Of a DNA stretch of 64,000 nt, positions 10,283 through 47,691 are shown one piece after another; position 1 is the first letter of the stretch, and each line of letters begins with the position of its first letter. The position numbers and the translations under genes are program-made. The stretch is from NCBI RefSeq assembly GCF_057098645.1, contig NZ_CM169472.1, one strand, 5' to 3'. The notes under the pieces are model-generated. The model worked only from the letters and a program-made list of their open reading frames with translations. It made no database searches and had not been told where the DNA came from.

Positions 10283-10792
10283 TGGCATTTCATCTCCATC
10301 TGCGGCACACGCAATTGCCAAAGCTTATCGATACACCCCCTTACCCTGCCCCTCCTGGCACAATAACATCAACCAGCTACTCTTCAAGCTAACACCCAAA
10401 TGCATTTCTTTATGAATTAATCCGTAACAAACACGCTTCCCATATAGAAATTTTTGCAAAAATAGTGCATGAAATAAGCTTTTTCTCTACCAATCCGGGA
10501 TATAAATATTCATCAGCACCACAATATTCCACATCACTAAATCTCTCCCCGCCGCCCCGTACCTCTGATAATGGTCTAAAATCATTGAGGCCACTTGCGA
10601 CGACGTTGCTCAATAAGGAAAATTTGGCGTGAATAATATTCAACACCAGTGCAGCATCATCATTACATACTTACACCCGCCGACTACCGCTTTCGATATA
10701 TTGACTCAATTTTCCAGCCTGGTTAAAAATAGCGACCAGCTCAGTCGCAAATATAGTGACTACCCTAACTAAGCAACAATAAGGAATACACT

Positions 10793-11341
10793 ATGACTGT
10801 TCAAACAAGTAAAAATCCGCAGGTCGATATTGCTGAAGATAATGCATTCTTCCCTTCAGAATATTCGCTTAGCCAATATACCAGTCCTGTCTCTGATCTT
10901 GATGGCGTGGACTATCCAAAACCGTATCGCGGTAAACATAAAATTCTGGTGATCGCCGCGGACGAACGTTATTTGCCAACCGATAACGGAAAACTGTTCT
11001 CGACCGGTAACCATCCGATTGAAACGTTGCTGCCGTTGTATCATCTCCATGCTGCAGGTTTCGAATTCGAAGTGGCGACCATTTCCGGTCTGATGACCAA
11101 GTTTGAATACTGGGCTATGCCGCACAAAGATGAAAAAGTAATGCCATTCTTTGAGCAGCATAAATCGTTGTTCCGCAATCCGAAGAAACTCGCGGATGTT
11201 GTCGCCAGCCTCAACGCTGATAGCGAATATGCAGCAATCTTTGTTCCTGGTGGTCATGGCGCACTTATTGGTTTACCTGAAAGCCAGGACGTAGCTGCCG
11301 CTTTACAGTGGGCAATCAAAAATGGGTTTTTTGTTGCCTGA
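10793..11341 (+). pseudogene. hchA: hchA (Hsp31 glyoxalase) 5' fragment, interrupted by prophage integration
   Basis: First ~177 residues match HchA (MTVQTSKNPQVDIAEDNAFFPSEY... AAALQWAIKN), then the frame runs into phage DNA (GFFVA, stop). The missing C-terminus is found at 47701-48018. Confidence 0.85.
11316..11336. other. attL junction (host hchA / phage)
   Basis: hchA reading frame diverges after ...gcaatcaaaaatg; imperfect identity with the right junction (AAATGggTTTTtTGTT versus AAATGaccgTTTTGTT). Confidence 0.5.
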
Positions 11342-18559: not shown

Positions 18560-18701
18560 AGTGGCGAACCTCCTGATTGGATTAGGCTTCGCCCTATGTT
18601 GAAGTGATTGTGCCTGACAAACAGCTAAGCGCAGTTGTGTCGTTATTCACACAAAATAACGGTATTTGTCCGCTTACAGGAAAAATCAAAATAATGCTGA
18701 C

Positions 18702-19268
18702 TCAGGGCGATTCATTGTTCTCATTCGCCGGAAATTTTCTATAAATGGTAGAAACGCCCACATCAAAAATCAGTGCAATACGCTGTCTTGATTCTCCGGC
18801 CTCGAGTAAACGTCCAATCTGTGCCCACTGTTCGGTAGTCAACTTAGGACGGCGTCCACCTACTCTGCCTTTAGCACGAGCTGCAGCCAGCCCTGCCCTG
18901 GTACGTTCAACTATCAGTTCGCGTTCCATTTCAGCCAGGGCACCCATGACATGAAAAAAGAAACGGCCCATTGGGGTACTGGTATCAATACTGTCAGTCA
19001 GACTTCTGAAATTCACGCCGCGCTGGCGCAACTCTTCTATCAGAGTAACAAGATGCCGCATACTGCGCCCCAACCTGTCCAGCTTCCAGACAACCAGTGT
19101 GTCACCTGCCGATAGTGTCCTGAGCAGTTTTTTAAGCCCCGGTCGGTCGGACTTCGTGCCGCTGATTTTATCCTCAAAAATCAGCTCACATCCTGCACAC
19201 TCCAGCGCGTTACGCTGCAATTCCGTATTCTGGTCATTTGTTGACACGCGGACATAGCCAATAAGCAT
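18702..19268 (-). CDS. Serine site-specific DNA invertase (Hin/Gin/Cin/Pin family)
   Basis: 188-aa ORF MLIGYVRVSTNDQNTELQ... with catalytic Ser region and C-terminal HTH (GVSTIYRKF); adjacent to the invertible tail-fibre segment. Confidence 0.85.
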   Translation of the reverse strand: MLIGYVRVSTNDQNTELQRNALECAGCELIFEDKISGTKSDRPGLKKLLRTLSAGDTLVVWKLDRLGRSMRHLVTLIEELRQRGVNFRSLTDSIDTSTPMGRFFFHVMGALAEMERELIVERTRAGLAAARAKGRVGGRRPKLTTEQWAQIGRLLEAGESRQRIALIFDVGVSTIYRKFPANENNESP

Positions 19269-19323
19269 GATGGATCCCCTGAATAAAAACCGGGGATGAT
19301 GCCAGTTAGCCGTAATCTCTGCA

Positions 19324-19349
19324 TTTTCTTAAACGTTGGTTTGGGAGAA
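19324..19349. repeat. Invertase crossover site (left), gix/hix-like
   Basis: TTTTCTTAAACGTTGGTTTGGGAGAA; about 20 of 26 positions match the inverted partner at 21269-21294. Confidence 0.5.
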
Positions 19350-19790
19350 GCGGCAAAACGAAATGTGGGCAACGGGGAAAACCAAATCCCTGATATGTCT
19401 TTCTGGACGGTTACTGGTGGCAATGGAAATTTTGTGATTCGTCAACCTGACGGACTAATCATTCAGATGGTTACTGTAAGTATAAGCGGTCCAGTGGCGA
19501 TGAATGGAATGACTGATAATGCTTATGCCATTACAGGTTCTAATAAGTCTTATATTGCCACAGCCACATTGCCCTTTGTATTTCCTAATAAGGTGCTGGG
19601 CGTTATCCCTCTGGTATCAACAACAGCTTATGGTGGTGTATCCAGTAATATTACAGGTTCATACGCGACGGCGGTTTGTTCTTTTGCCGCTGTCAGGGGG
19701 AATAATACGATTGTGTTCAAAGTCGACAAACCACTGAATGCAGCCTTTCCTTCAGATACCAGCGTCTCAGCGTTAATCATTGGACGGTAA
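19350..19790 (+). CDS. Alternative tail-fibre C-terminal segment (Hc'), expressed only after inversion
   Basis: ORF begins at the crossover site, lacks an N-terminal domain, and is followed by a tail-fibre assembly gene; mirrors the Mu G-segment S'/U' arrangement. Confidence 0.55.
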   Translation, partial: AAKRNVGNGENQIPDMSFWTVTGGNGNFVIRQPDGLIIQMVTVSISGPVAMNGMTDNAYAITGSNKSYIATATLPFVFPNKVLGVIPLVSTTAYGGVSSNITGSYATAVCSFAAVRGNNTIVFKVDKPLNAAFPSDTSVSALIIGR

Positions 19791-19792
19791 GA

Positions 19793-20236
19793 ATGAACTC
19801 AGTATTCTTTTCACCCGCAAGTAAAAGTTTTTATCTGCAAGAATTGTTTCCAGAATATGAGGATGCGGGAACGCTTCCTGATGATGTTATTGAAATTACC
19901 AGAGAAACATATGAGCAATTTCTTGGGCTGCATCCAGAAGGGAAAGAAATTGGCGCTGACAGTTCAGGACGGCCAATATGGATTAATTCCCCGCCGCCTT
20001 CAAAAGAGGATGAGATGCTGGCGGCTGAAATGAAAAAGATATCTTTGGTTTCAGAAGTCAATACCTACATCAATACCCATCAGTGGCCTGGCAAAGCTGC
20101 TATTGGTCGTCTGAAAGGTTACGAGCTGGAACAATATAATTTATGGCTGGATTATCTGGACGCACTGGAACTGGTTGATACCGCCAGTGCTCCAGATATT
20201 GAATGGCCTACGCCTCCGGTAGTTCAGGCCAGATGA
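19793..20236 (+). CDS. Alternative tail-fibre assembly chaperone (G'-like)
   Basis: 147-aa ORF with the conserved Tfa C-terminus ...LWLDYLDALELVDTASAPDIEWPTPP. Confidence 0.75.
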   Translation: MNSVFFSPASKSFYLQELFPEYEDAGTLPDDVIEITRETYEQFLGLHPEGKEIGADSSGRPIWINSPPPSKEDEMLAAEMKKISLVSEVNTYINTHQWPGKAAIGRLKGYELEQYNLWLDYLDALELVDTASAPDIEWPTPPVVQAR

Positions 20237-20813
20237 CATCCGGCGCGGTGCTGGTATCTGTTGCAGTCACCGCGTCAATGTAATCCAGCACAGCGTTAAG
20301 CCGGGTTGTTTCTGCCTGCGTCAGCTTCCGCCCGGCCTGCAATTTCAGCTGAATCAGACTAATGGAAGCCATAGCAGCATCAATCAGTGACTGGCGCCGT
20401 ACTTCTGCCGCGTCTACTGCGGCGTTATGCTGTGCCTCAGTATCGGTCACCCATTTCTCACCATCCCATTTATCGTATGACGTTAACGGGGCGATAGTGG
20501 TTGTATTTTCAGGGTAATCACCCGGAACTGTGATTTCTTTTGATTTTCCTGTTTCGGTGCTATAGACGATTTCACCGCGATGGTCTGGCACATATTCCCA
20601 TGAGTTAAAATCTGCAGAACGGCAAATTGCATAACCAGCTTTATATGAGCCAGGAGCATCTAAACAGGAACATGCCGGGATACCGACACCCACAGCAAGA
20701 TATTCAGTTGATGTGGAAATATATTCCCGTGTTTCACCATCATAATTATAAACGGTAATGTCTCCGGCCTTTGTGGCGATGAGTTCATTATTTAATACAG
20801 CTTTACTTATCAT
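20208..20813 (-). CDS. Tail-fibre assembly chaperone (gpG-like)
   Basis: 201-aa ORF with Tfa C-terminal motif ...LNAVLDYIDAVTATDTSTAPDVIWPELP; downstream of H. Confidence 0.75.
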   Translation of the reverse strand: MISKAVLNNELIATKAGDITVYNYDGETREYISTSTEYLAVGVGIPACSCLDAPGSYKAGYAICRSADFNSWEYVPDHRGEIVYSTETGKSKEITVPGDYPENTTTIAPLTSYDKWDGEKWVTDTEAQHNAAVDAAEVRRQSLIDAAMASISLIQLKLQAGRKLTQAETTRLNAVLDYIDAVTATDTSTAPDVIWPELPEA

Positions 20814-22330
20814 GCAGCCCTCACAATATAATTAAAGGCGATGTTACGGGAGCGGGTTTCAGATGCTGTGCGAACTGAGCGAGATGCGTCGAATGTCCAG
20901 TTATAAGCGCCATAACCCTCAATAATTTCGGCTTCCTTTAGACCTGTAGATAATACTTGCCCATGTTGACTAAATGGCCCTGAACTAAGTACGTCTCTAA
21001 AAAGCTGGGTACGCCCAAAAGAACCAACAATATTCTGAATTGCATCATTCTGTGCAGATAATAAGTTACGACCAGAGTCAATCCCGCGCCCATCATCCCA
21101 GCCACGAATAAATTCACCGCGTAAATCTGGTAATTTTAATGTTGGGTAAGCCTTTGCCAGATTTGGGTACTTTTCAGAAGAAAATGCTGCTCCGTTACAT
21201 TTTAGCCAGCCCGTTGGTGGTGTTTCTAAGGGCCACGGAACGGGCACACCAACAGGCAGTGCAGAGCCTTCCCCCAAACCAAGGTATGCGAGAAGACCAG
21301 CTACATCCTTTCCACTCAAATGAGTCAGCGTCTCATCCAGCGGTTGTTTACCTGCCAGCGCATTAAGCATTGTCGTGGCAAAGTTCGGGTCATTCCCCAG
21401 CGCTGCCGCCAGTTCGTTCAGTGTATCCAGTGCCGCAGGTGCAGAACCCACCATTGCCGCAATCGCCGATTTCACAAATGCCGTGGTGGCAATCTGTGTA
21501 TTGTTGACCGACTGTGCCGCAGTAGGTGCGGTTGGCGTTCCGGTGAGTGCCGGACTCGACAGCGGCGCTTTCAGTGCCAGCGCATTGTTAATGGTGGTAC
21601 TGAATTTCGGATCATTGTTAATGGCTGCGGCTATTTCTTTCAGCGTGTCCAGCGTGGCTGGCGCACCATTAATAAGAGCCGTCAGAGCCGCCTGAACAAA
21701 CGCGGTGGTCGCAATCTGCGTGGTGTTATTCCCTGCGGCTGGCGTTGGCGCTTTGGGTGTCCCGGTAAACGTCGGACTTTCTTTGGGTGCATACTGTGAA
21801 TGCGGGTCCGGTGCGGCAAGATGTTTTGCCATCTGATCATCCGCGTACACCTTCAGCTCCAGTGCCTTGTCATCCACATACTTGCGGGTTGCCAGCACTA
21901 CGGCAGGGTCGATTTTCAGGGTGATATTGTCCGTGCTGCTGGTAATCAGCACCATGCGCACGGTCTGAGTGCGCCCGCTACCTTCAGCCAGTTGCGGCTT
22001 ATAGCTTTCCGGGCAGTTGCCCACGGCAATCAATGCCCCGGACTCATCAAACAAGCCCACTTCACGTATCCACCAACCGCCCTCGTTTTCAGGGATCACC
22101 TGTTCGGCAATAATCTGGCTGCTGTTCTGCAGGTCGATATAGAGCATATTCAGCGCAGCCCGGCGTTTCTCATTTACCAGTGCAGTCTGCTTTGAGTCTG
22201 GCGTTGGCAATACTCCGCCGCCATCGCCGACCGCCATATGGGTAATTTTTAGCGGCACACCGAGCGCGGCGGCGCTGGCAAGTTTCGCCGCGCCAATATC
22301 CGTCAGCAGGGTATAAAATTTTGTGCTCAT
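20810..22330 (-). CDS. Tail fibre protein (gpH-like); C-terminal ~160 aa lie inside the invertible segment
   Basis: 506-aa ORF with repeated tail-fibre-type motifs (TTQIATTAFV... twice); a crossover site lies inside it. Confidence 0.8.
   Translation of the reverse strand: MSTKFYTLLTDIGAAKLASAAALGVPLKITHMAVGDGGGVLPTPDSKQTALVNEKRRAALNMLYIDLQNSSQIIAEQVIPENEGGWWIREVGLFDESGALIAVGNCPESYKPQLAEGSGRTQTVRMVLITSSTDNITLKIDPAVVLATRKYVDDKALELKVYADDQMAKHLAAPDPHSQYAPKESPTFTGTPKAPTPAAGNNTTQIATTAFVQAALTALINGAPATLDTLKEIAAAINNDPKFSTTINNALALKAPLSSPALTGTPTAPTAAQSVNNTQIATTAFVKSAIAAMVGSAPAALDTLNELAAALGNDPNFATTMLNALAGKQPLDETLTHLSGKDVAGLLAYLGLGEGSALPVGVPVPWPLETPPTGWLKCNGAAFSSEKYPNLAKAYPTLKLPDLRGEFIRGWDDGRGIDSGRNLLSAQNDAIQNIVGSFGRTQLFRDVLSSGPFSQHGQVLSTGLKEAEIIEGYGAYNWTFDASRSVRTASETRSRNIAFNYIVRAA
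21269..21294. repeat. Invertase crossover site (right), inside gene H
   Basis: TTCCCCCAAACCAAGGTATGCGAGAA, inverted relative to the site at 19324-19349; central AAACCAAGGT resembles hix/gix. Confidence 0.5.
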
Positions 22331-33579: not shown

Positions 33580-34362
33580 TTAATCATTTTCTGGTTTGTT
33601 TGAAGTTTCATTTACAGGCTGGATCACATCCTTATTAAAATGGCGCGTTTGTTCGACTTTACCTTTTCTAGAAAGGCCTGCACCTTCTAAAATTGAATCG
33701 ATTTTATCGCCACCATTAGCTAAGAAATGCTTAAAATTTTCCGATGATAACATTTCCATTATAGGCGATGAATGGGTAGCTTCTTCAACAAATCTTAATG
33801 GCGGCTCCTCCAGTCGAGTAAGTGCATTACCAAATAACCTTTGGGTAAAGTCGCTATCAAGTTGGACAGCTTCTCTTCTATATCCCTCATAAGCTTTGGA
33901 TACTGAGGCCTTGAATTCATAATCCTCTGCCAATCTGAATCGCTGACCAATTTGTTTCGTTGCTAACCAAGCAAACCATAATGGTGCTCCAACACTTAAA
34001 ATGGAGAGTAAAAGTTGAATAGCTAACTTTATACCTGATGCGTCAGGGTTTGACAGATATGCTTCGAGAGCATGTAAACGCGTATAACCAACAGCAGCAC
34101 CTGCAACCAAAGCACCTATTAGTCCACATACCCACCAACGTATGCTCCGGTTTAATTTTTCTGCTTTATCTTGAAATGCCCCAGCCAAACCTTTTGAAGT
34201 AGTAGTTCTAAATGCCTCTTCACATTTATTAATATAACCCTGAGCTTCTTCACGGAGAGATTGTAAATAATCTTTTGCATCCTTGCTTGCATTCTGTTTC
34301 AGCGCCAAAATTTCTTGTCTGGCCTCATCTACGATTTTGGAGTTCTCTTCAGTCTCTTTAAG
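33580..34362 (-). pseudogene. 3' part of an IS1-disrupted cargo gene (two-TM protein of unknown function)
   Basis: Frame continues from the 8-bp IS1 target duplication; encodes two hydrophobic helices (WWVCGLIGALVAGAAVGY, LLLSILSVGAPLWFAWLA) and a C-terminal soluble domain. Confidence 0.6.
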
Positions 34363-34377
34363 GGTAATGACTCCAAC

Positions 34378-34881
34378 TTATTGATAGTGTTTTATGTTCA
34401 GATAATGCCCGATGACTTTGTCATGCAGCTCCACCGATTTTGAGAACGACAGCGACTTCCGTCCCAGCCGTGCCAGGTGCTGCCTCAGATTCAGGTTATG
34501 CCGCTCAATTCGCTGCGTATATCGCTTGCTGATTACGTGCAGCTTTCCCTTCAGGCGGGATTCATACAGCGGCCAGCCATCCGTCATCCATATCACCACG
34601 TCAAAGGGTGACAGCAGGCTCATAAGACGCCCCAGCGTCGCCATAGTGCGTTCACCGAATACGTGCGCAACAACCGTCTTCCGGAGCCTGTCATACGCGT
34701 AAAACAGCCAGCGCTGGCGCGATTTAGCCCCGACGTATCCCCACTGTTCGTCCATTTCCGCGCAGACGATGACGTCACTGCCCGGCTGTATGCGCGAGGT
34801 TACCGACTGCGGCCTGAGTTTTTTAAATGGCGGAAAATCGTGTTGAGGCCAACGCCCATAATGCGGGCGGTTGCCCGGCAT
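34378..34881 (-). CDS. insB: IS1 transposase InsB
   Basis: 167-aa [21 protein letters not shown]... matches IS1 InsB. Confidence 0.9.
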
Positions 34882-35075
34882 CCAACGCCATTCATGGCCA
34901 TATCAATGATTTTCTGGTGCGTACCGGGTTGAGAAGCGGTGTAAGTGAACTGCAGTTGCCATGTTTTACGGCAGTGAGAGCAGAGATAGCGCTGATGTCC
35001 GGCGGTGCTTTTGCCGTTACGCACCACCCCGTCAGTAGCTGAACAGGAGGGACAGCTGATAGAAACAGAAGCCAC
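34800..35075 (-). CDS. insA: IS1 InsA
   Basis: 91-aa ORF with zinc-finger [16 protein letters not shown]... matches IS1 InsA. Confidence 0.9.
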
Positions 35076-35130
35076 TGGAGCACCTCAAAAACACCATCAT
35101 ACACTAAATCAGTAAGTTGGCAGCATCACC

Positions 35131-35747
35131 TCTTTAAGCATGCCATTAATATTTCTGCAATGCTCAACTGCGCTATTGTAAACATTTTTAACTTCATCAT
35201 TTGTTTCACGAAGCATTTTTACTGTTGTCGGTAGATTCTCGGCTGCATCATATGCTTCATTTATAGTTTTAATTTTCTCTTCTATATTACCAGTTTCAGC
35301 TGCAATTGCAGATATACCTGAATTATATAATTCTAATCTGCGTAAAATTTGCTTTGGTAATAAATTTCTATCTTTCAGCCTCTCAAATGAAAAAAGGTCA
35401 TTAATCCTATGAGAGATATATAACATTGAAATAACATAAGATGGTATAGCGGTCTGTTGAACTGATGCGTTACCATTGTTTATATGATTAATATTTTGCT
35501 GAGCATGATCCAGAGTGTAAATGAGCGCATCAATTACTGCAATGTCATCTGAAGATGGTACAAATTCCTGCATCTGATTAATTCTATCAGATAACATTTT
35601 TGGTAGTTCTATCAGATCCTCTTTATGTAAAAAAGGAAATGTGTACGGCCCAAGGTTTATAAAATCTTCCACAGGGAATACAAGACCATTAAGTGTTGTA
35701 TGTAAATTATCTAGTTTCTCTTTTAATTCAGTTAGTTTTTCGTTCAT
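35131..35747 (-). pseudogene. 5' part of the IS1-disrupted cargo gene (N-terminal helical domain)
   Basis: About 205 native codons (MNEKLTELKEKLDNL...NINGMLKE), then the reading frame enters the IS1 inverted repeat. Confidence 0.6.
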
Positions 35748-36032: not shown

Positions 36033-36710
36033 CTAGAACGTGACAGCCTTGTCAAAGCCAGAAATAATTGTATAAGAAATAGACGAGTTATCAGCCTTGT
36101 TCACTTTGAACTTGGCACCTTTGTAAGCGATAACGTCACTTCCCTTAGAATCTACAGAAAAATCTGTTGTAAATGCTGCACGAGCCATATCGTTTGCAAA
36201 TTCACGATAGGTGAACTTCATTACACCGCCTGCATTTCCATTGTATTCGATAGTCTTAACCAATGAGTTACTAACTCGACACAGCCCATCAGGAACACGT
36301 TTGATAGAAATTTCTGATGCAGTATAAGAAGTACCATTTGGCGGTGATATCTCATTTTTTGCAGCATCGTAACTAACATAATCAACATAGTTACCGATTT
36401 GCCCATAGAGATTTTTTAACGCAACAGCTTGAGGGTTATGATAATTGCGGTAAATTCCATTCCCCTCACTGCAATATGTACCAGCAGCGATAGAAGACAA
36501 TGCACCATTAGCCGCACCAAGTTCTAGTACGTCCGTTTTAAATCCAGTAGCAGATGTGATAATGGGATCGCCCATGTAGGCGGTAGCACTTTGCCCAATA
36601 GCAGGCTTCACCACTTCAATAGCAGTGATATTTCGGTTAGAAGCATGTGGCACGCAACCAGTTAGGATTACAGCAAGAGATATTGGTAACGCTACATTAT
36701 TAATTTTCAT
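36033..36710 (-). CDS. Lipoprotein of unknown function (prophage cargo next to cos)
   Basis: Signal peptide with lipobox MKINNVALPISLAVILTGC and a Gly/Ser/Thr-rich mature domain; AT-rich. Confidence 0.7.
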   Translation of the reverse strand: MKINNVALPISLAVILTGCVPHASNRNITAIEVVKPAIGQSATAYMGDPIITSATGFKTDVLELGAANGALSSIAAGTYCSEGNGIYRNYHNPQAVALKNLYGQIGNYVDYVSYDAAKNEISPPNGTSYTASEISIKRVPDGLCRVSNSLVKTIEYNGNAGGVMKFTYREFANDMARAAFTTDFSVDSKGSDVIAYKGAKFKVNKADNSSISYTIISGFDKAVTF

Positions 36711-36823
36711 TTTTAGCCTATTATTCTTTTCTTGACAAAAAACAAGGCGATATCCGATTGACATCGCCTCTCACTCATATGTAACCCTTTTTGATTAGTA
36801 AAAACAAGCGTCTATTGACAAAA

Positions 36824-37057
36824 TCAATGCAGCCAGCTGTCGTCTTCCCACACCTTCTGCATAATTTTCATCACTTGTTTTCTTTCTTCGTCCAGTTGCA
36901 GTCCGGTCAGTTCCACACCGTTAGAGCTACCTTTACGGATACGGATTACCGTTTTGGGATACAGGGGGCGCAGATTGCGGTAAAGCTCGGATTCAAGGGC
37001 GTCCAGGGTAGACTGGCTAATCTTCTGCTCTTTATCGATCATTATTTCAATGCGCAT
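36824..37057 (-). CDS. DinI-family protein
   Basis: MRIEIMIDKEQKISQSTLDALESEL...QKVWEDDSW resembles DinI (MRIEVTIAK...ETWESADDW). Confidence 0.7.
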   Translation of the reverse strand: MRIEIMIDKEQKISQSTLDALESELYRNLRPLYPKTVIRIRKGSSNGVELTGLQLDEERKQVMKIMQKVWEDDSWLH

Positions 37058-37067
37058 AAAAGTCACC

Positions 37068-37256
37068 TCAGCTGATGACATCCATTGAGCGGTTGTATTC
37101 GTGGCTTCTGATTTTTGCCATGAGTTCATCAGTCAATTCAGAAACCCACTGCAGAGCCAGCCCCTTCTCTTCATCACTACACTCACTAGCCGCTACAAGC
37201 TTAAGAAAAAAATCAATGCGCTGGAGCTTCAAAGACTCCAAAAAATAGTCCTGCAT
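37068..37256 (-). CDS. Small SOS-controlled protein, possible Tum-like antirepressor
   Basis: 62-aa ORF directly downstream of a LexA box and upstream of the dinI-like gene, the arrangement of the 186 tum operon. Sequence similarity not confirmed. Confidence 0.35.
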   Translation of the reverse strand: MQDYFLESLKLQRIDFFLKLVAASECSDEEKGLALQWVSELTDELMAKIRSHEYNRSMDVIS

Positions 37257-37410: not shown

Positions 37411-39416
37411 TTAATACAGGTTCCGCCACTTATCATCTTCCTGCAAACGCTGGTTCCGATAGAAGATACGCAGGCCTGCTCCTGACGGAATACTGCCGCC
37501 GCGAAGGAGTAAATCGACCTCTTTCTCGCTGCCATCAAATCCTCTGGATTTCAGTTCATAGACGAGCTGCTGTCGTTGATGGTCTGTAATTCGCTGTTTG
37601 TAGTCTCTACGCCGTTTCGGTTTCACCAGACGTAACCTTGCAGCCAGTTCCCGGCGCTCCTTTTTGTTCATACTGTGCAGGTAATCGTGCAACTCCTTGT
37701 CATCCATGCGGGTAAAGTCCGTTCTGGGGTCCCCATCAGCTGATTTATCTTTCTCCTGTTGGTTCAAATTTTCAGCAAGGGGACAGTTATTGCCACGAGT
37801 CCAAGGGGCGCAAGCGCCCTGGTCGGCTGCCGCCTCCTGAACGTCAACGGCCTTACGAACCATTTTCCACTTCACTGCATGAGTACAAATCTTGCCCTCT
37901 GCAATGGGTGACCAGATGCCATAAATACGAATACCGTGATCGCCATAGGCGGTCGGCTCTTCGTTAATTTCATAAGCTGTTCTGATAAGGTGATATTTGC
38001 GGGGAACCAGTACGCCGCCCTGCTTCATAATGTAGGTGGCAAAACAACCAGCATCAGCAGCAGCCAGAATGGCATCAAGGCGCGGGTTATCCAGTACCGG
38101 CGCACCTGCTTTTTTGTCACCCTGTTGCCTTGCCGCCTGACCAGCCAGCAATCGCAATTCACGGTACGCCTGACGCCCCGGAATACCAAAGAAGCGAAAT
38201 TGCTGAACACGATGCAGAGACGCCCAGGCATTAACGTATTCAGCGTTATCACGCAGGGATTTACCCGTTTCCTTGCTGATTTCGCCAGCCAGACCACGCC
38301 CATCAATGTTCTTACTGATGTATTTCGCGATGTAGCTTGTCGGCGTTCCTTTTCGCGGGTTAATCAGCTCAGACTTAAAGCGCGGCCCCGTGTTATTGCC
38401 CAGCTCCTCACGGTCTTCACGGATAGCAAACTTACGCAACAATGCAGTAATGGCGCGGCGGTCTTTTTTGCGCATGAAACACAACAGGTGCCAGTGAACT
38501 GTGCCGTCATGATGCGGCTCAGCCACCCGCACGCCATACCAGCGCAACCCGGCTTTGTGCATCGCCTTACGAAATGCAGCAAACATACCGACCAGATAAT
38601 CGCTGCTTTGTCTTACCGTCGCATTTGTCCATGTCGGGTTGGGTCTGCCGTTATTGAGCGTGGAATGGAAACGTGACGGACAGGTAATGGTGTAGAAAAC
38701 GGCGCAGTCACCGCGCATTTCCGCGATAAGCTCCAGACCTTTAACACAGGCCATCATCTCATTGCGACGATGCGCCGGGTTGCTGCTGCTGGCGTTTACC
38801 ACATCTTCCATATCCAGCGCGTCTCCGTCTTCGTTCACCAGTTCATGAGAACGGAAAAACTCCAGTGACTTACGGCGCTGCTCACGTTTATGCATCACGG
38901 CTTCATAGCTGACATAGGGAGATGCTTTTTTGCTGACCAGGCAGACAGCACGCAACTGCTCTTCCCGCCATTCGCAACGCATCTTCCACAATTTCCGATA
39001 CCACCAGTCGGCGCACAGCATACGCGCCAGCGAACCCGGAATGAGTTCATAGGGCACGGGTTTACGGCGGTTTCTTTTCCGACGGAGTTGCTCAAACGCA
39101 GGCGGGATGACATCCAGACGCAGGGTTTCCGCTGCCACCTTTTCCCATGTCTTGCGGATTTCTTCTGGCTTAACGTCATCGGTGGCATACAAATCACCAC
39201 AAGCTGCATCAAGGCACATACTCATATGCGCAGCTACCAAGGTGGACAGGCGTTTCACCTGATCCTGACTCATTTCAGGCAGGATCAGCAGGCCGTCCAG
39301 CCCTTCATGGCTTGCCATAAAGCGAAAAGATGCAGATAGCTGACTGTCGCGTACATGCTCCAGTCGTTCCAGACATGGCTTAATCGTCTCACGTAAATAG
39401 CGGGAATAAGCCTTTG
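37411..39416 (-). pseudogene. Replication initiation endonuclease gene A, 3' portion (split by IS21-family insertion)
   Basis: 635-aa ORF with rolling-circle initiator motif ([11 protein letters not shown]); frame stays open upstream of the annotated Met as far as the IS boundary. Confidence 0.8.
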
Positions 39417-39515
39417 TGCGTATTCCGCTCTATTCGATCACGGATTGGCATCGAAGTCCGATCAGCGATTCGCATCCATTCGATCAACCGGGAACTTAAC
39501 TTTTTCTACCGCTTT

Positions 39516-40271
39516 TTAACGCGTTTTTTCGCTGCTTTCCACTACCGGGGGATTTTTCCTCAGTGACTCTCCCTGAAGGACCACTCGGTGTGAGTTATGT
39601 ACCAGTCTGTCCAGGATGGCATCTGCTGTTGTTGGGTTCTCCATCAGACCATGCCATTTATCTACCGGGAACTGGCTTACCACTATCGTGCTGCTTTGTC
39701 CGTAACGATCCTCTATGAGCTCCAGAAGGTCATTACACTGGGCGTTACTTAACTGTTCCAGCCCCAGATCGTCCAGGATTAGAACCTGTATTTTTTGCAA
39801 CTGTTTCAGATATTTCAGCCAGCTGCCATCAACACGTCCCTGAGCCAGTTGTTCCAGTAATCGCCCGGTTCTACAGTACCGGACGCTGTGTTTCTGTCGA
39901 CATGCCTGTTCGCCCAGCGCATTGGCTATCCAGCTCTTGCCACATCCTGTCGGACCGGTTATCAGCAGGTTTTTCCTGTGGGTTATGTAGTGGCCGTTCA
40001 GCAGTTCTCTCATCTGTTCAGCCCGCAGACCTCTTGAGGCCGGATAGCGCAGCCCTTCCGGTGTTGCCTGGTATTTCAGGCCGGCATTTTTTCTCAACCG
40101 TGCCACACGGCTGTTTTCCCTGCTCAGAAGCTCGTCATCAACCAGCAGCGTCAGCCTTTCCTCGAACGACAGTTCGTCGTAGGTCTGAGGCGTTTCCCGC
40201 TGCCGTATCAGGCTCCCGGCCATCGCCGGGAGTTTCAGTTGGGTCAGTTTGTTTAACAGGTTATCACTCAT
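39516..40271 (-). CDS. istB: IS21-family helper ATPase IstB
   Basis: Walker A (GPTGCGKS) and Walker B (LILDDLG) motifs; start chosen at MSDNLLNKL. Confidence 0.8.
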   Translation of the reverse strand: MSDNLLNKLTQLKLPAMAGSLIRQRETPQTYDELSFEERLTLLVDDELLSRENSRVARLRKNAGLKYQATPEGLRYPASRGLRAEQMRELLNGHYITHRKNLLITGPTGCGKSWIANALGEQACRQKHSVRYCRTGRLLEQLAQGRVDGSWLKYLKQLQKIQVLILDDLGLEQLSNAQCNDLLELIEDRYGQSSTIVVSQFPVDKWHGLMENPTTADAILDRLVHNSHRVVLQGESLRKNPPVVESSEKTR

Positions 40272-40287
40272 ACTGTTGTTCCTTCTG

Positions 40288-41823
40288 TCAGTGGTAGTAG
40301 CCCGGACCACGCAGGTTTTCATGCTCTGAAGCATATGCCGGATGTTGTTCGCCCTGGCGGGATAATGGAAGCTCCAGGTTCTCCCGATGGTGACGCAGCA
40401 GATTGTCGATAAAGCGTCTGTCAGGGGCGTTATAGTGCAGGGCAACGTAACAGGCCTTTTCCAGCCGTTCCGGGCCGTATTTTTTCTGAAGTGCCAGCAG
40501 CCCCAGAACTGCACGATAAGCCAGTTCCGGATGGGGTTTTGCCTTCAGCATGGATTCAACCACCCGGCCTGTGGACGGGCCCGTACGTTTTCCCTGCTCG
40601 ATCAGGCGTTCCGGTGTCCATGTCCCGTGCTGCCGGTGGCGCTCTGGCATGTGAAGCGGATTGGTTGTGTGTTTATATTCATGTGTGCTGCGCGGATGTT
40701 GCGCCACACACTGCCCCTTGTGCCAGAGCTGTACCACCGACTGCCCCGCCTTCAGTGACAGACGCTGACCGACCAGTTCGTGTGGAACGGAGTACCAGTG
40801 ACGGGCATATTCAACGTGGTAGTCAGGGCCAACCTTCACAGCTTTGTATTCCGTGTATTCATAAGGTGCCAGAGGCAGCGGAGAGAGTGCTGGCGCATCC
40901 AGTATGCGGAAGCGTTCTGCACGGGTTTGATTGCCGTACCCCTTCATTGGCCGGTTATTCATGTCTGTCAGTAACTCCCTAAGGCGCGCATTCAGCGCCC
41001 TGAGCGTGTGGAAGGTTTCATTACGGATGCGGGCAAGAAGCCATCGTTCAACGATGAGGACGCCGTTTTCTGCTTTTGGTTTATCTTTAGGTTTGCGTGG
41101 TCGGGCCGGGATGATAACCGTGCCATAGTGCTCAGCCAGTGCCTGATAACTGTCGTTGATGACAGGCTCATATCGATCGGCCTTTTTCACTGCGCTTCTG
41201 AGGTTATCGGGGATGAGCAGCTTCGGTACGCCGCCCAGGAAGGTCAGGCAACGGCTGTGGGCATTTAACCATGACATCATGTCCTGACCTTCGCACGCTT
41301 CAACGTAGGTATAGTTGGACGCCCCCATTACGGCCACGAAGATTGCCACGCGGCGTATCTCACCGGTGTCCGGATTAATAACAGGAACCGTAGGACCACA
41401 GAAGTCGATAAAAAGCTTTTCGCCGGCACGATGCTCCTGGCGCATGGAGAGACGTCGCGTTTTTTTCCACTCCCGGTAGCAACGGCAGAAGTGCGAGTAT
41501 CCCATCGCTTTGTTACCCGCCTGTGCCTTGTATTCCATCCACAACAGTTGCCGCGTCACACCTGGTTTTCTCATTTCCGTATCGAAGTACAACATGTCAG
41601 GCATTACAAGCTCTGATGCAAAGGTGTCTTTGGGCGGAAAAATGAGTTTCTCCAGCGTGTCATGGGATATATCAGCAGGTAATGGCCATGACAGAGAAGA
41701 GGCTTTGAAGCGGGCAAGAACCTCAAAAACGGTTGAGGCGCTGATGTGTAACGTCAGTCCGATACAACGGTTAGTCAGCTTCTTGTCGAACTTGAGCTGA
41801 AGGATCTTAAAACAGGTTTCCAT
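40288..41823 (-). CDS. istA: IS21-family transposase IstA
   Basis: About 512-aa product with integrase-type catalytic core; start chosen at METCFKILQL. Confidence 0.8.
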   Translation of the reverse strand: METCFKILQLKFDKKLTNRCIGLTLHISASTVFEVLARFKASSLSWPLPADISHDTLEKLIFPPKDTFASELVMPDMLYFDTEMRKPGVTRQLLWMEYKAQAGNKAMGYSHFCRCYREWKKTRRLSMRQEHRAGEKLFIDFCGPTVPVINPDTGEIRRVAIFVAVMGASNYTYVEACEGQDMMSWLNAHSRCLTFLGGVPKLLIPDNLRSAVKKADRYEPVINDSYQALAEHYGTVIIPARPRKPKDKPKAENGVLIVERWLLARIRNETFHTLRALNARLRELLTDMNNRPMKGYGNQTRAERFRILDAPALSPLPLAPYEYTEYKAVKVGPDYHVEYARHWYSVPHELVGQRLSLKAGQSVVQLWHKGQCVAQHPRSTHEYKHTTNPLHMPERHRQHGTWTPERLIEQGKRTGPSTGRVVESMLKAKPHPELAYRAVLGLLALQKKYGPERLEKACYVALHYNAPDRRFIDNLLRHHRENLELPLSRQGEQHPAYASEHENLRGPGYYH

Positions 41824-42055
41824 AGTGCTCCTGGATTTTCTCTTTCTGGACATTGACGTCTCCACTGGTTTAAACACGGCAATGGAGACTGTGGTGAAAA
41901 GAGTTAATTCCCGGAGTGACTGGCAGGATGCCAATCAATGATCGGAAGCATGCCAAATCGTGATCGATTGTGATGCCAAACTGTGATCGGAGATGGATGC
42001 CAAATCATGATCGATTCGAATGCCAAACTGCGATCGATTCAGATGCCATTTTGCA

Positions 42056-42470
42056 CCTTTGGCCTGCCCAGGCTGCTGAAGTATTCAATACGTTGCATCA
42101 GCGGCTTGCTGATATGGGAAGGCTGGGCGTTGACGTCCGCCAGAATGACCATGTCTGAATTAAAACGCTGCTGCTCATGCGCCAGCTTTGCCCGGCTAAT
42201 GAGCTTATCCTGCTCCATTTCGCGCTGGACAGGATCACGTGATTCATTAAAGAAATAACGCTCCCAGACCTGATCACTCAGTGCCTCGCGGCGCAACTGT
42301 TCCTGCTCGTTATCGGCAGCGTACAGAGTGATCAGGTTTGAAAGCGTAGAAACCGGCGCAACTTCCGCCGGGTCCAGATAAGGGTTAATGGCCTTTTTCG
42401 GGCTGTTCCATGAGAACGCTGCGGCAGCCTCGTTAAAGCCGCAGCAGTTGTTCATATCGGCATGACTCAT
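42056..42470 (-). pseudogene. Replication gene A, 5' portion (upstream of IS insertion)
   Basis: ORF is in frame with 37411-39416 once the IS and one copy of the target duplication are removed; its last 8 codons in the track come from the IS end. Confidence 0.6.
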
Positions 42471-43324
42471 GCACGTACTCCGTACACGGCAGAACTATCC
42501 ACGCCACGCGAATAATCAAATCCCATCCAGCAGCGCGGCCCGGAAACAGCAATGATTTCTGTTGCTGATTTACCCTCGCCAGCTGCCACACCGATGCTGC
42601 GTTTTACCTTGATATAGTGGTGAGTAAAATTGCGATACAGCGAACGGATCAGGGATGTGTCACTGTTAGAAACAATGACCGGATGTCCTTCTGATGACCG
42701 ATGTTCAAGAACGGATGCCAGGTGATACTGGTCATCTTCAGTGAAACCATCAGTGTGATAGCCGGAAAACGTACCGTCATACGGCGGATCGCAATACACC
42801 ACATCTCCCGCCTTCAACATCGCCAGCGTTTCATCAAAGCTGGCGCAGATAAACGTTGCTCGCTGGGCCTTTTCTGCAAATGCGCGAATTTCTTTTTCAG
42901 GGAAATACGGATTTTTATAATTACCGTAGGGAATGTTGAAATGCCCGCTCTTGTTATAGCGACATAAACCACGGTAACCGTGACGATTGAGATACAGGAA
43001 ATATACCGCTTTCATGAAATCAGTAATTTCAGTTGAGTAATTAAACTCCTGCCTTATGTTGTAATAAGCCACCTCCCTGTTTGCGATCTCAAATAAAACT
43101 CTGGCGCGAGATATAAACGATTCACAATCAGCGGCAACCTTTTTATAGAGGTTGATTAAATCAGGATTAATATCCGCAACCAGATAGCTGGGATAATCCG
43201 TCTCCATCATCACAGCACAGGACCCCGCGAAAGGTTCAACCAGTCGCGGGCCAGCAGGAAGATGTTTTTTCAGTTCGGACATAATGGCGGTTTTATTTCC
43301 CGCCCATTTCAGGATGGTGCTCAT
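42467..43324 (-). CDS. Dam-family DNA N6-adenine methyltransferase (phage-encoded orphan)
   Basis: [11 protein letters not shown]... N-terminus, SAM-binding FAGS motif and catalytic DPPY motif; stop overlaps the gene A start. Confidence 0.75.
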
Positions 43325-47603: not shown

Positions 47604-47691
47604 GTTGGCATTACCCCGTAATAACCACCACTGACCACCAACCCAACTTATTGTTTTTACTCTAACTTATTGTTTTCATTAACCCATTTAC

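Follow-up and report, generated by a model that had tools for sequence, protein, structure and literature searches.

The window, by which we mean the whole 64-kb stretch of DNA analysed here, contains a P2/186-like (Elveevirus-type) prophage in an E. coli chromosome, at approximately 11322-47713. Its replication gene A lies in two pieces on either side of a complete insertion sequence (IS) that has the same orientation as the gene (Table 1). On its left, the flanking DNA matches O145:H28 strains with 100% identity; in those strains hchA is intact and the site is free of any prophage. No perfect att direct repeats of at least 8 bp were found at the prophage ends, where only an imperfect core some 20 bp long is present.

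Table 1. Features of the interrupted gene A and of the inserted element (positions in the window)
Feature	Position	Strand	Remarks
3' fragment of gene A	37411..39416	-	from within codon 137 to codon 804, plus stop
Probable nick region of ori, within A	37783..37811	-	GCGCCCCTTGGACTCGTGGCAATAACTGT; assigned by similarity only
Target-site duplication CCTTTG, istB-distal copy	39411..39416
IS21-family insertion sequence, complete	39417..42055	-	2,639 bp; TG...CA termini
17-nt motif ATGCCAA-N5-GATCG, istB-distal end	39435..39475	-	two copies, inverted
istB, IS21-like helper AAA+ ATPase	39516..40271	-	251 aa; from NF038214 and annotated CDS coordinates in identical copies
istA, IS21-family DDE transposase	40288..41823	-	511 aa; start from RefSeq annotation of identical copies
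17-nt motif ATGCCAA-N5-GATCG, istA-proximal end	41928..42036	+	five direct copies at intervals of about 23 bp
Target-site duplication CCTTTG, istA-proximal copy	42056..42061
5' fragment of replication gene A	42057..42470	-	codons 1-138; 100% identity with residues 1-138 of HS A

The inserted element and its boundaries

The two genes of the element are consecutive and co-oriented, with istA preceding istB as is usual for the IS21 family, and both are intact. IstA scores 284.6 bits against the NCBIfam model NF033546 (transpos_IS21; curated cutoff 160) and IstB 257.8 bits against NF038214 (IS21_help_AAA; curated cutoff 200). The element begins with TGCGTATTCC and finishes with ATTTTGCA, and its ends, written TGCGTATT... 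and ...TTTTGCA, form the 5'-TG...CA-3' terminal inverted repeats of the family. Target duplications of IS21-family elements are 4-8 bp long in the ISfinder family description; the perfect 6-bp CCTTTG duplication found here agrees with this, as does the length of the element with the ~2-2.7 kb typical of the family. The 17-nt repeats near both ends are the multiple subterminal repeats typical of IS21 elements, and with up to two mismatches allowed the rest of the 64-kb window holds merely four weak matches to the motif, each with two mismatches. Thus, judged by its sequence, the inserted element is an IS21-family IS, as had been proposed in a preliminary description of this DNA.

Over all 2,639 bp it is 100% identical to the element that RefSeq labels 'IS21-like element ISSso4 family' (IstB WP_001282653.1, IstA WP_045147483.1), and we use the 'ISSso4 family' name as a RefSeq label. 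The two share the istA-istB layout, the TG...CA ends, the subterminal repeats and a short target duplication, and show no structural difference; the insertion site alone is peculiar to the present genome. Full-length copies with 100% identity occur in many E. coli chromosomes and plasmids, at up to 29 places in a single chromosome record. This identity to many copies elsewhere points to a recently active element and suggests that the insertion is recent.

The boundaries of the element can be read from the empty site. The BLAST alignment with the uninterrupted prophage of E. coli HS stops at 39416 (position 10460 in the HS locus, L004) and restarts at 42056 (10465), and this 6-bp overlap means that the empty site carries CCTTTG once. 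Further, when the same IS was examined at six sites in other genomes, each copy had identical TG...CA ends and its own duplication of 4-7 bp. Together with the placement of the two gene fragments on a single profile (PHROG 91, below), the empty site and the six copies confirm the boundaries in three independent ways. Some BLAST matches began at query position 189-195, as if one IS end reached 6-8 nt further; we rejected this longer end because in the alignment of the six copies the similarity stops at the TG...CA ends, with unrelated sequence on the flanks. The arrangement of the IS and gene A is no chance pattern.

Reconstruction of gene A and the origin of the split

The IS and one copy of CCTTTG amount to 2,645 bp. 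When they are deleted, the ORF that starts at 42470 joins the region upstream of the ATG at 39318 in frame and without a stop, giving a minus-strand gene of 804 codons (804 aa plus stop) whose product is identical at 803 of 804 residues to the intact 'replication endonuclease' of the HS prophage. The length of the insertion and the in-frame fusion are exactly as stated in the preliminary description, which had also put the initiator at about 805 aa. As the sequence now stands, the 5' ORF begins at an ATG (42470) that forms an ATGA overlap with the stop codon of dam, which lies upstream, and extends to 42039, taking up five IS-derived codons (VQNGI) and a stop for a total of 143 aa. The 3' fragment begins inside the duplicated CCTTTG. 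The 635-aa ORF listed for this region starts at the ATG at 39318, which the alignment with intact homologues identifies as the internal Met170; it aligns with residue 118 of P2 A and residue 119 of 186 A, in keeping with the earlier surmise that P2 A extends about 120 aa beyond the listed start.

The two pieces fall on successive stretches of one profile, PHROG 91 ('nicking at origin of replication'; E 2e-268), with the N-terminal fragment covering positions 16-103 and the C-terminal fragment 141-759. NCBIfam models gave no match to either fragment, and Pfam and PHROGs were used in their place. The Pfam domain Phage_GPA (PF05840) spans residues 188-510 of A (model positions 1-321 of 321, E 3.8e-127) and lies wholly in the 3' fragment, as do a HUH-type motif (HWH) and the tyrosine motif YIAKYISK. 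The HUH-type region aligns with P2 EPHHDGTPHWHMM and the Y-x-x-x-Y region with its P2 counterpart; these aligned motifs we take to be the catalytic residues (Odegrip and Haggard-Ljungquist 2001). The P2 and 186 records annotate a nick site within A, and 37783-37811 aligns at the corresponding codon (~675) with the annotated nick regions of P2 (GCGCCTCGGAGTCCTGTCAATAACTGT) and 186, which makes it a putative ori by similarity.

These alignments bear directly on whether one gene or two occupied the site. A small upstream gene followed by a 635-aa A starting at the Met at 39318, with the IS lying harmlessly between them, is what a mechanical ORF list alone would suggest, given that the 635-aa ORF does start at an ATG. 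However, where the gene is intact, in sequenced phages as in 1,230 E. coli genomes, it is one CDS of 804 aa, the P2 and 186 A proteins align through the junction, and the empty site falls within the HS CDS. With the two ORFs also sharing the PHROG 91 profile, the two-gene reading is refuted, and we give it a negligible chance. P2-type gpA is encoded by an uninterrupted ORF and the present gene is split after codon 138; A as it stands is a pseudogene of the P2-type gpA family and no functional member of it.

Among the complete E. coli genomes that carry A, 1,230 of 1,234 have the insertion site uninterrupted, with A annotated as a single 'replication endonuclease' CDS overlapping dam; since only four lack a contiguous copy, the site is no hotspot. 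The junction of A with the IS was found in 0 of 5,426 complete E. coli genomes, and its exact 30-mer GGGAATAAGCCTTTGTGCGTATTCCGCTCT is absent from the GTDB species-representative genomes. The interrupted gene is thus the derived state. A junction found in no other genome searched could also arise from a repeat-induced misjoin that placed an IS copy into an intact A, and assemblers do err at repeats, of which this multicopy IS is one. Yet both junctions are exact at canonical TG...CA ends and flank a perfect 6-bp duplication of an empty-site sequence that is single-copy; such ends and duplications are the signature of real transposition and would not be produced by a misjoin. The window also has other clean IS insertions (an IS1 with an 8/9-bp duplication), fitting an IS-rich genome. 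We accordingly regard an assembly artefact as highly improbable.

Predicted consequences for the prophage

The explanation we favour, to which we assign a probability of about 0.88, is that transposition of an IS21-family element into the prophage gene A split the gene, so that no full-length A is made and the prophage is replication-dead. More specifically, an active element would have entered codons 137-139 of the rolling-circle initiator gene, creating the 6-bp target duplication. The first product would be a 143-aa N-terminal stub made from the native, dam-coupled start, and the second piece, a 3' fragment with no promoter, would have Met170 as its first in-frame start and lack a ribosome-binding site; full-length A would not be made from such a split gene. 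A is predicted to nick ori within its own gene, preferentially in cis. With no full-length A, rolling-circle replication after derepression should fail, and hence no phage should be formed. According to Liu, Saha and Haggard-Ljungquist (1993), as cited in PMC5694545, gene A of P2 acts in cis and contains ori.

Several features of the 3' fragment are consistent with this loss of function. No in-frame ATG, GTG or TTG lies between Met170 and the stop within the end of the IS, and no match to a Shine-Dalgarno sequence precedes the ATG at 39318 (TCTTTTCGCTTT). A consensus-only scan, which is weak negative evidence and was aimed also at an outward promoter carried by the IS or formed at its junction, detected no consensus sigma-70 promoter in 39000-42600. 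Further, the 186 record states that A is translated only if ribosomes read the ORF before it through to its end. Being without a Shine-Dalgarno sequence and decoupled from dam, the 3' fragment most likely leaves A null and the prophage replication-dead, a phenotype that we infer from the sequence. Here we assume that the first 138 codons of A are needed.

That assumption is where a different outcome might enter. The insertion would not be null if the 635-aa fragment were read through from the early operon or from istAB, translated from Met170, and able to retain nicking and joining at ori, leaving replication partly possible. Since the IS and A point the same way, and a search of the IS for minus-strand terminator-like sites, hairpins included, found none, read-through RNA over the 3' fragment is plausible, and low-level translation from Met170 may occur; the product would carry the Phage_GPA domain and the HUH and tyrosine motifs, and the ori homologue too lies in this fragment. 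The N-terminal ~140 residues are, moreover, the most variable part of A and partly missing from P2 and 186 A, and the first 138 codons are its least constrained part, with 12 synonymous against 15 non-synonymous codon differences relative to one copy with 93% DNA identity. Against this, the reading frame is open, with no indel or stop, over the first 272 codons in the two 93%-identical copies checked, and the truncated protein would lack what corresponds to P2 A residues 1-117, among them a W-N-x-P-R block conserved across P2, 186 and this clade. Beyond the missing Shine-Dalgarno sequence, alternative in-frame start and promoter-like site, translational coupling to dam, of which an analogous case is known in 186, is gone, and about 200 nt of untranslated RNA after the istB stop may invite Rho-dependent polarity. 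We therefore consider a functional truncated A unlikely.

Quite unlikely, in our estimate, is the broader proposal that the insertion is no simple knockout, with expression of truncated A driven by the co-oriented IS or the insertion kept by the lineage. If it were true, constitutive, repressor-independent read-through would yield a catalytically complete A (residues 170-804) nicking the ori in its own gene, and the result would be either a prophage that is 'leaky' or replicates in situ at a low level, or chronic site-specific nicks; alternatively, the lineage would have kept the insertion since it leaves the prophage 'grounded' while its immunity and tail genes are preserved.

Under the favoured loss of A, the putative ori would still be intact, as would the genes for regulation and integration and those morphogenesis genes that can be compared directly. 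The int, apl/cox-like, cI and cII genes are 100% identical to those of the HS prophage, and with them intact excision should remain possible; thus, of the earlier suggestion that the prophage is locked in as replication-defective, the replication defect remains the prediction, but the locking in goes too far. The other HS prophage CDSs all have full-length counterparts in the window with 97-100% identity, except for A, an IS1-split cargo gene and a replaced tail-fibre H/G module that is without a close HS counterpart. It had likewise been suggested that the structural and cargo genes look intact: the morphogenesis genes comparable with HS are all full length, but a 463-aa cargo gene in the variable region between A and the portal gene is split by the IS1 at 34363-35130. 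PADLOC, run on this gene and the neighbouring lipoprotein-like gene, returned no credible defence system, with only a noise-level match to JetC.

In annotation, the 635-aa 'A' ORF and the upstream ORF of 143 aa are best treated as one IS-interrupted pseudogene, and the prophage, although nearly all of its genes are present, is best classed as probably non-inducible and defective. The insertion is real but ordinary and recent, and raises no new biological question.

Comparison with known phages and prophages

The gpA proteins of the HS prophage (ECHS_RS04490) and of two sequenced phages, Escherichia phage Cartapus (CARTA_43) and Klebsiella phage 4LV2017 (gp08), are 804 aa long, as is the reconstructed A, to which they are 99.9%, 98.9% and 98.1% identical, respectively. 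P2 A and 186 A are more distant, at ~31% and ~35% identity, and the present clade has a longer N-terminus. The reconstructed protein shares with Peduoviridae gpA the Phage_GPA domain and both the HUH-type and the Y-x-x-x-Y motif; its gene also contains an ori-like sequence, a putative nick region by similarity. The gene order dam-A-orf-dinI-like is the same as in these P2-like phages, and the early genes are 186-like. In contrast to these relatives, the present A has a 2.6-kb IS following codon 138.

The closest parallel to the state of the prophage lies among the IS-disrupted 'defective' prophages of pathogenic E. coli, such as the prophage pool of O157 Sakai (Asadulghani et al. 2009, PMC2669165); shared features are inactivating lesions in key genes and an IS-rich genome related to EHEC/EPEC lineages. 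In that pool, the P2-like Sp13 is without most morphogenesis genes and still replicates, and prophages judged defective from their sequence can still be mobilised via other prophages (PMC2669165). By contrast with the Sakai prophages, the damage here is minimal and recent, limited to the IS in A and a single IS1 in a cargo gene, and the interrupted A offers a clean, datable case of the first step in prophage decay in an IS-rich E. coli.

Gene A and the element that divides it

The ORF list places a 143-aa ORF (42470-42039) and a 635-aa ORF (39318-37411) on the minus strand, with two long ORFs of the same orientation between them; IstA, the IS21-family transposase, scores 284.6 bits (NCBI curated cutoff 160), and IstB, the helper ATPase, 257.8 bits (cutoff 200). 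Reading the junctions confirmed every number that the preliminary description gave for the splitting of replication gene A, namely an IS of 2,639 bp and a 6-bp CCTTTG duplicate, together 2,645 bp. Once 39417-42061 is removed in silico, a single reading frame, 804 codons long before its stop, runs open from the ATG at 42470 to 37411, in agreement with the in-frame fusion of 'about 805 aa' proposed there. The alignment to intact A genes that it recommended gave a concordant result: in tblastn searches with the reconstructed protein, sequenced phages matched with single, full-length 804-aa proteins, such as Cartapus gpA (98.9% identity; annotated as 'replication endonuclease gpA, P2 GpA homolog') and Klebsiella phage 4LV2017 gp08 (98.1%), and in the related prophage of E. 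coli HS the 2,415-bp 'replication endonuclease' CDS is intact and differs at one residue (M414T). On the PHROG 91 profile ('nicking at origin of replication'), the small ORF covers positions 16-103 and the large one 141-759.

The DNA alignment to HS breaks at window position 39416 (HS locus 10460) and restarts at 42056 (HS locus 10465), and HS thus represents an empty site with a single CCTTTG. A probe made of the initial 816 nt of reconstructed A, which spans the insertion point, occurs in 1,234 complete E. coli genomes and is contiguous in 1,230, where A is annotated as one CDS overlapping dam; the A::IS junction is found in none of 5,426 complete E. coli genomes and is absent from the GTDB species-representative genomes. 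The interrupted A is thus a derived and rare state. The insertion is also recent, because the IS is 100% identical to other copies, its duplication is perfect and A bears no secondary lesion.

The entire element is 100% identical to full-length copies, labeled 'IS21-like element ISSso4 family' in RefSeq, that occur across many chromosomes and plasmids of E. coli; a single chromosome record can carry it at as many as 29 places. All six other copies retrieved with flanks (L008-L013) start with TGCGTATT and finish with TTTTGCA, and their direct duplications measure 4, 5, 6, 6, 7 and 7 bp amid otherwise unrelated flanks. As these copies share ends, each with its own duplication, the ends assigned here are exact, and the 6-bp CCTTTG represents a true target duplication. 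The six sites have no obvious target consensus; several of these copies disrupt phage- or defense-related genes (large terminase, a dynamin-family gene, a DEAD/DEAH helicase and a TOTE-system primase).

Features of the prophage, gene A and the neighboring DNA
Feature	Position	Details
Tail-fiber module	18560-21270	Differs from HS prophage
DNA invertase	18702-19268	188 aa; PHROG 125
Tail-fiber-assembly cassettes	19296-20236 (+) and 20208-20813 (-)	Opposed
Fiber gene	20810-22330	506 aa
Halves of IS1-split 463-aa gene	33583-34362 and 35130-35747	Minus strand
IS1	34363-35130	768 bp; canonical ends GGTAATGACTCC... and ...GGCAGCATCACC; 8/9-bp duplication CTCTTTAAG
Candidate ori nick region	37783-37811	Aligns with the annotated nick sites within A of P2 and 186
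CCTTTG duplicates	39411-39416 and 42056-42061	Directly abutting IS ends
IS21-family element	39417-42055	2,639 bp; starts TGCGTATTCC..., ends ...ATTTTGCA
Pfam Phage_GPA domain	A residues 188-510	
HUH-type (HWH) and YIAKYISK motifs of A		Aligned with P2 and 186 counterparts
Two adjacent IS3-family elements	57734-60060	orfB 288 aa; then orfA 108 aa and orfB 296 aa

Predicted output of the divided gene

The insertion falls between A codons 138 and 139, corresponding to residues 82/83 of P2 A and 69/70 of 186 A. The Met at 39318, residue 170 of A, aligns with residue 118 of P2 A and residue 119 of 186 A, which bears out the earlier statement that P2 A extends beyond the annotated start. Since the Phage_GPA domain, both motifs and the nick-region match all lie in the 3' fragment, this fragment appears to hold everything catalytic together with the candidate cis-acting ori.

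The native start codon of A shares bases with the stop of dam (ATGA at 42467-42470), and, according to the 186 record, A translation needs the upstream ORF to be translated to its end. Past the IS, a stop within the end of the element closes the A frame, and between this stop and Met170 there is no in-frame ATG, GTG or TTG; the bases upstream of the ATG at 39318 (TCTTTTCGCTTT) have no Shine-Dalgarno match, and a scan of 39000-42600 detected no consensus promoter. Judged from the sequence, full-length A cannot be produced from the split gene, and efficient synthesis of truncated A would be unlikely. A is essential for replication by the annotation of the P2 record, and P2 gene A is cis-acting with ori inside it (Liu, Saha and Haggard-Ljungquist 1993, as cited in PMC5694545). 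Our best reading is that the prophage is probably replication-dead (probability about 0.88). As the main alternative, read-through from the co-oriented istAB could express a residually active 170-804 fragment, in keeping with the lack of any detected minus-strand terminator-like hairpin within the IS; we regard this as very improbable.

Directly downstream of A (36033-36764 and 36824-37256) are a 62-aa ORF, a DinI-like gene (77 aa in HS) and a lipoprotein-like gene (225-243 aa; PHROG 1353, unknown function), each 100% identical to HS. Polar transcription past the IS, if present, may reduce their early-operon expression.

The prophage, its site and known systems

Most of the prophage (~11322-47713) matches the HS prophage at 99-100% identity. 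A search for all 44 annotated HS prophage CDSs recovered them at full length and 97-100% identity, including int, cI, an apl-like gene, cII, fil, dam, portal, terminase, capsid, lysis, baseplate, sheath, tube, tape measure, D and ogr, with three exceptions. These are A itself; a 463-aa gene in the A-portal variable region (intact in HS, WP_001003256.1; PHROG 34659, unknown function; no credible PADLOC hit), whose division by IS1 contradicts the view that the cargo genes look intact; and the HS tail-fiber H/G module, replaced by a different fiber gene, a DNA invertase and oppositely oriented tfa cassettes. The description of the prophage as 'locked in' likewise goes too far, since its excision machinery is intact; in Sakai, prophages that are defective by sequence retain the ability to excise, and even to be packaged, helped by other prophages (PMC2669165).

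The prophage sits in mid-gene within hchA (glyoxalase III/Hsp31; sites 10793-11341 and 47691 onward), which is left as a 182-aa truncated ORF with the remainder restarting at 47691, whereas the near-identical HS prophage lies between rcdA and ybjL. The att core is imperfect here, with no exact repeat of at least 8 bp. O145:H28 RM12761 has an uninterrupted hchA and an 11.3-kb left flank 100% identical to the window. The IS3-family pair stands in place of ~21 kb of its lambdoid prophage (L005, the RM12761 segment, 14003 to 35140), a stretch that begins at nleB2, takes in the tail and head genes and ends within the large terminase; the loss looks like an IS-mediated deletion.

The IS and A both belong to well-described families and display their testable features, save that the present A lacks an uninterrupted ORF and is consequently a gpA-family pseudogene. 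The A::IS allele is new to the collections searched, though nothing in it is new in kind: an IS21-family element common in enterobacteria has inactivated a prophage gene by ordinary insertion. The 17-nt motif ATGCCAA-N5-GATCG, in five direct copies at the istA end and two inverted at the istB end, reproduces the multi-repeat end architecture of such elements, and the tail-fiber module resembles an invertible host-range switch of the Gin/Cin type.
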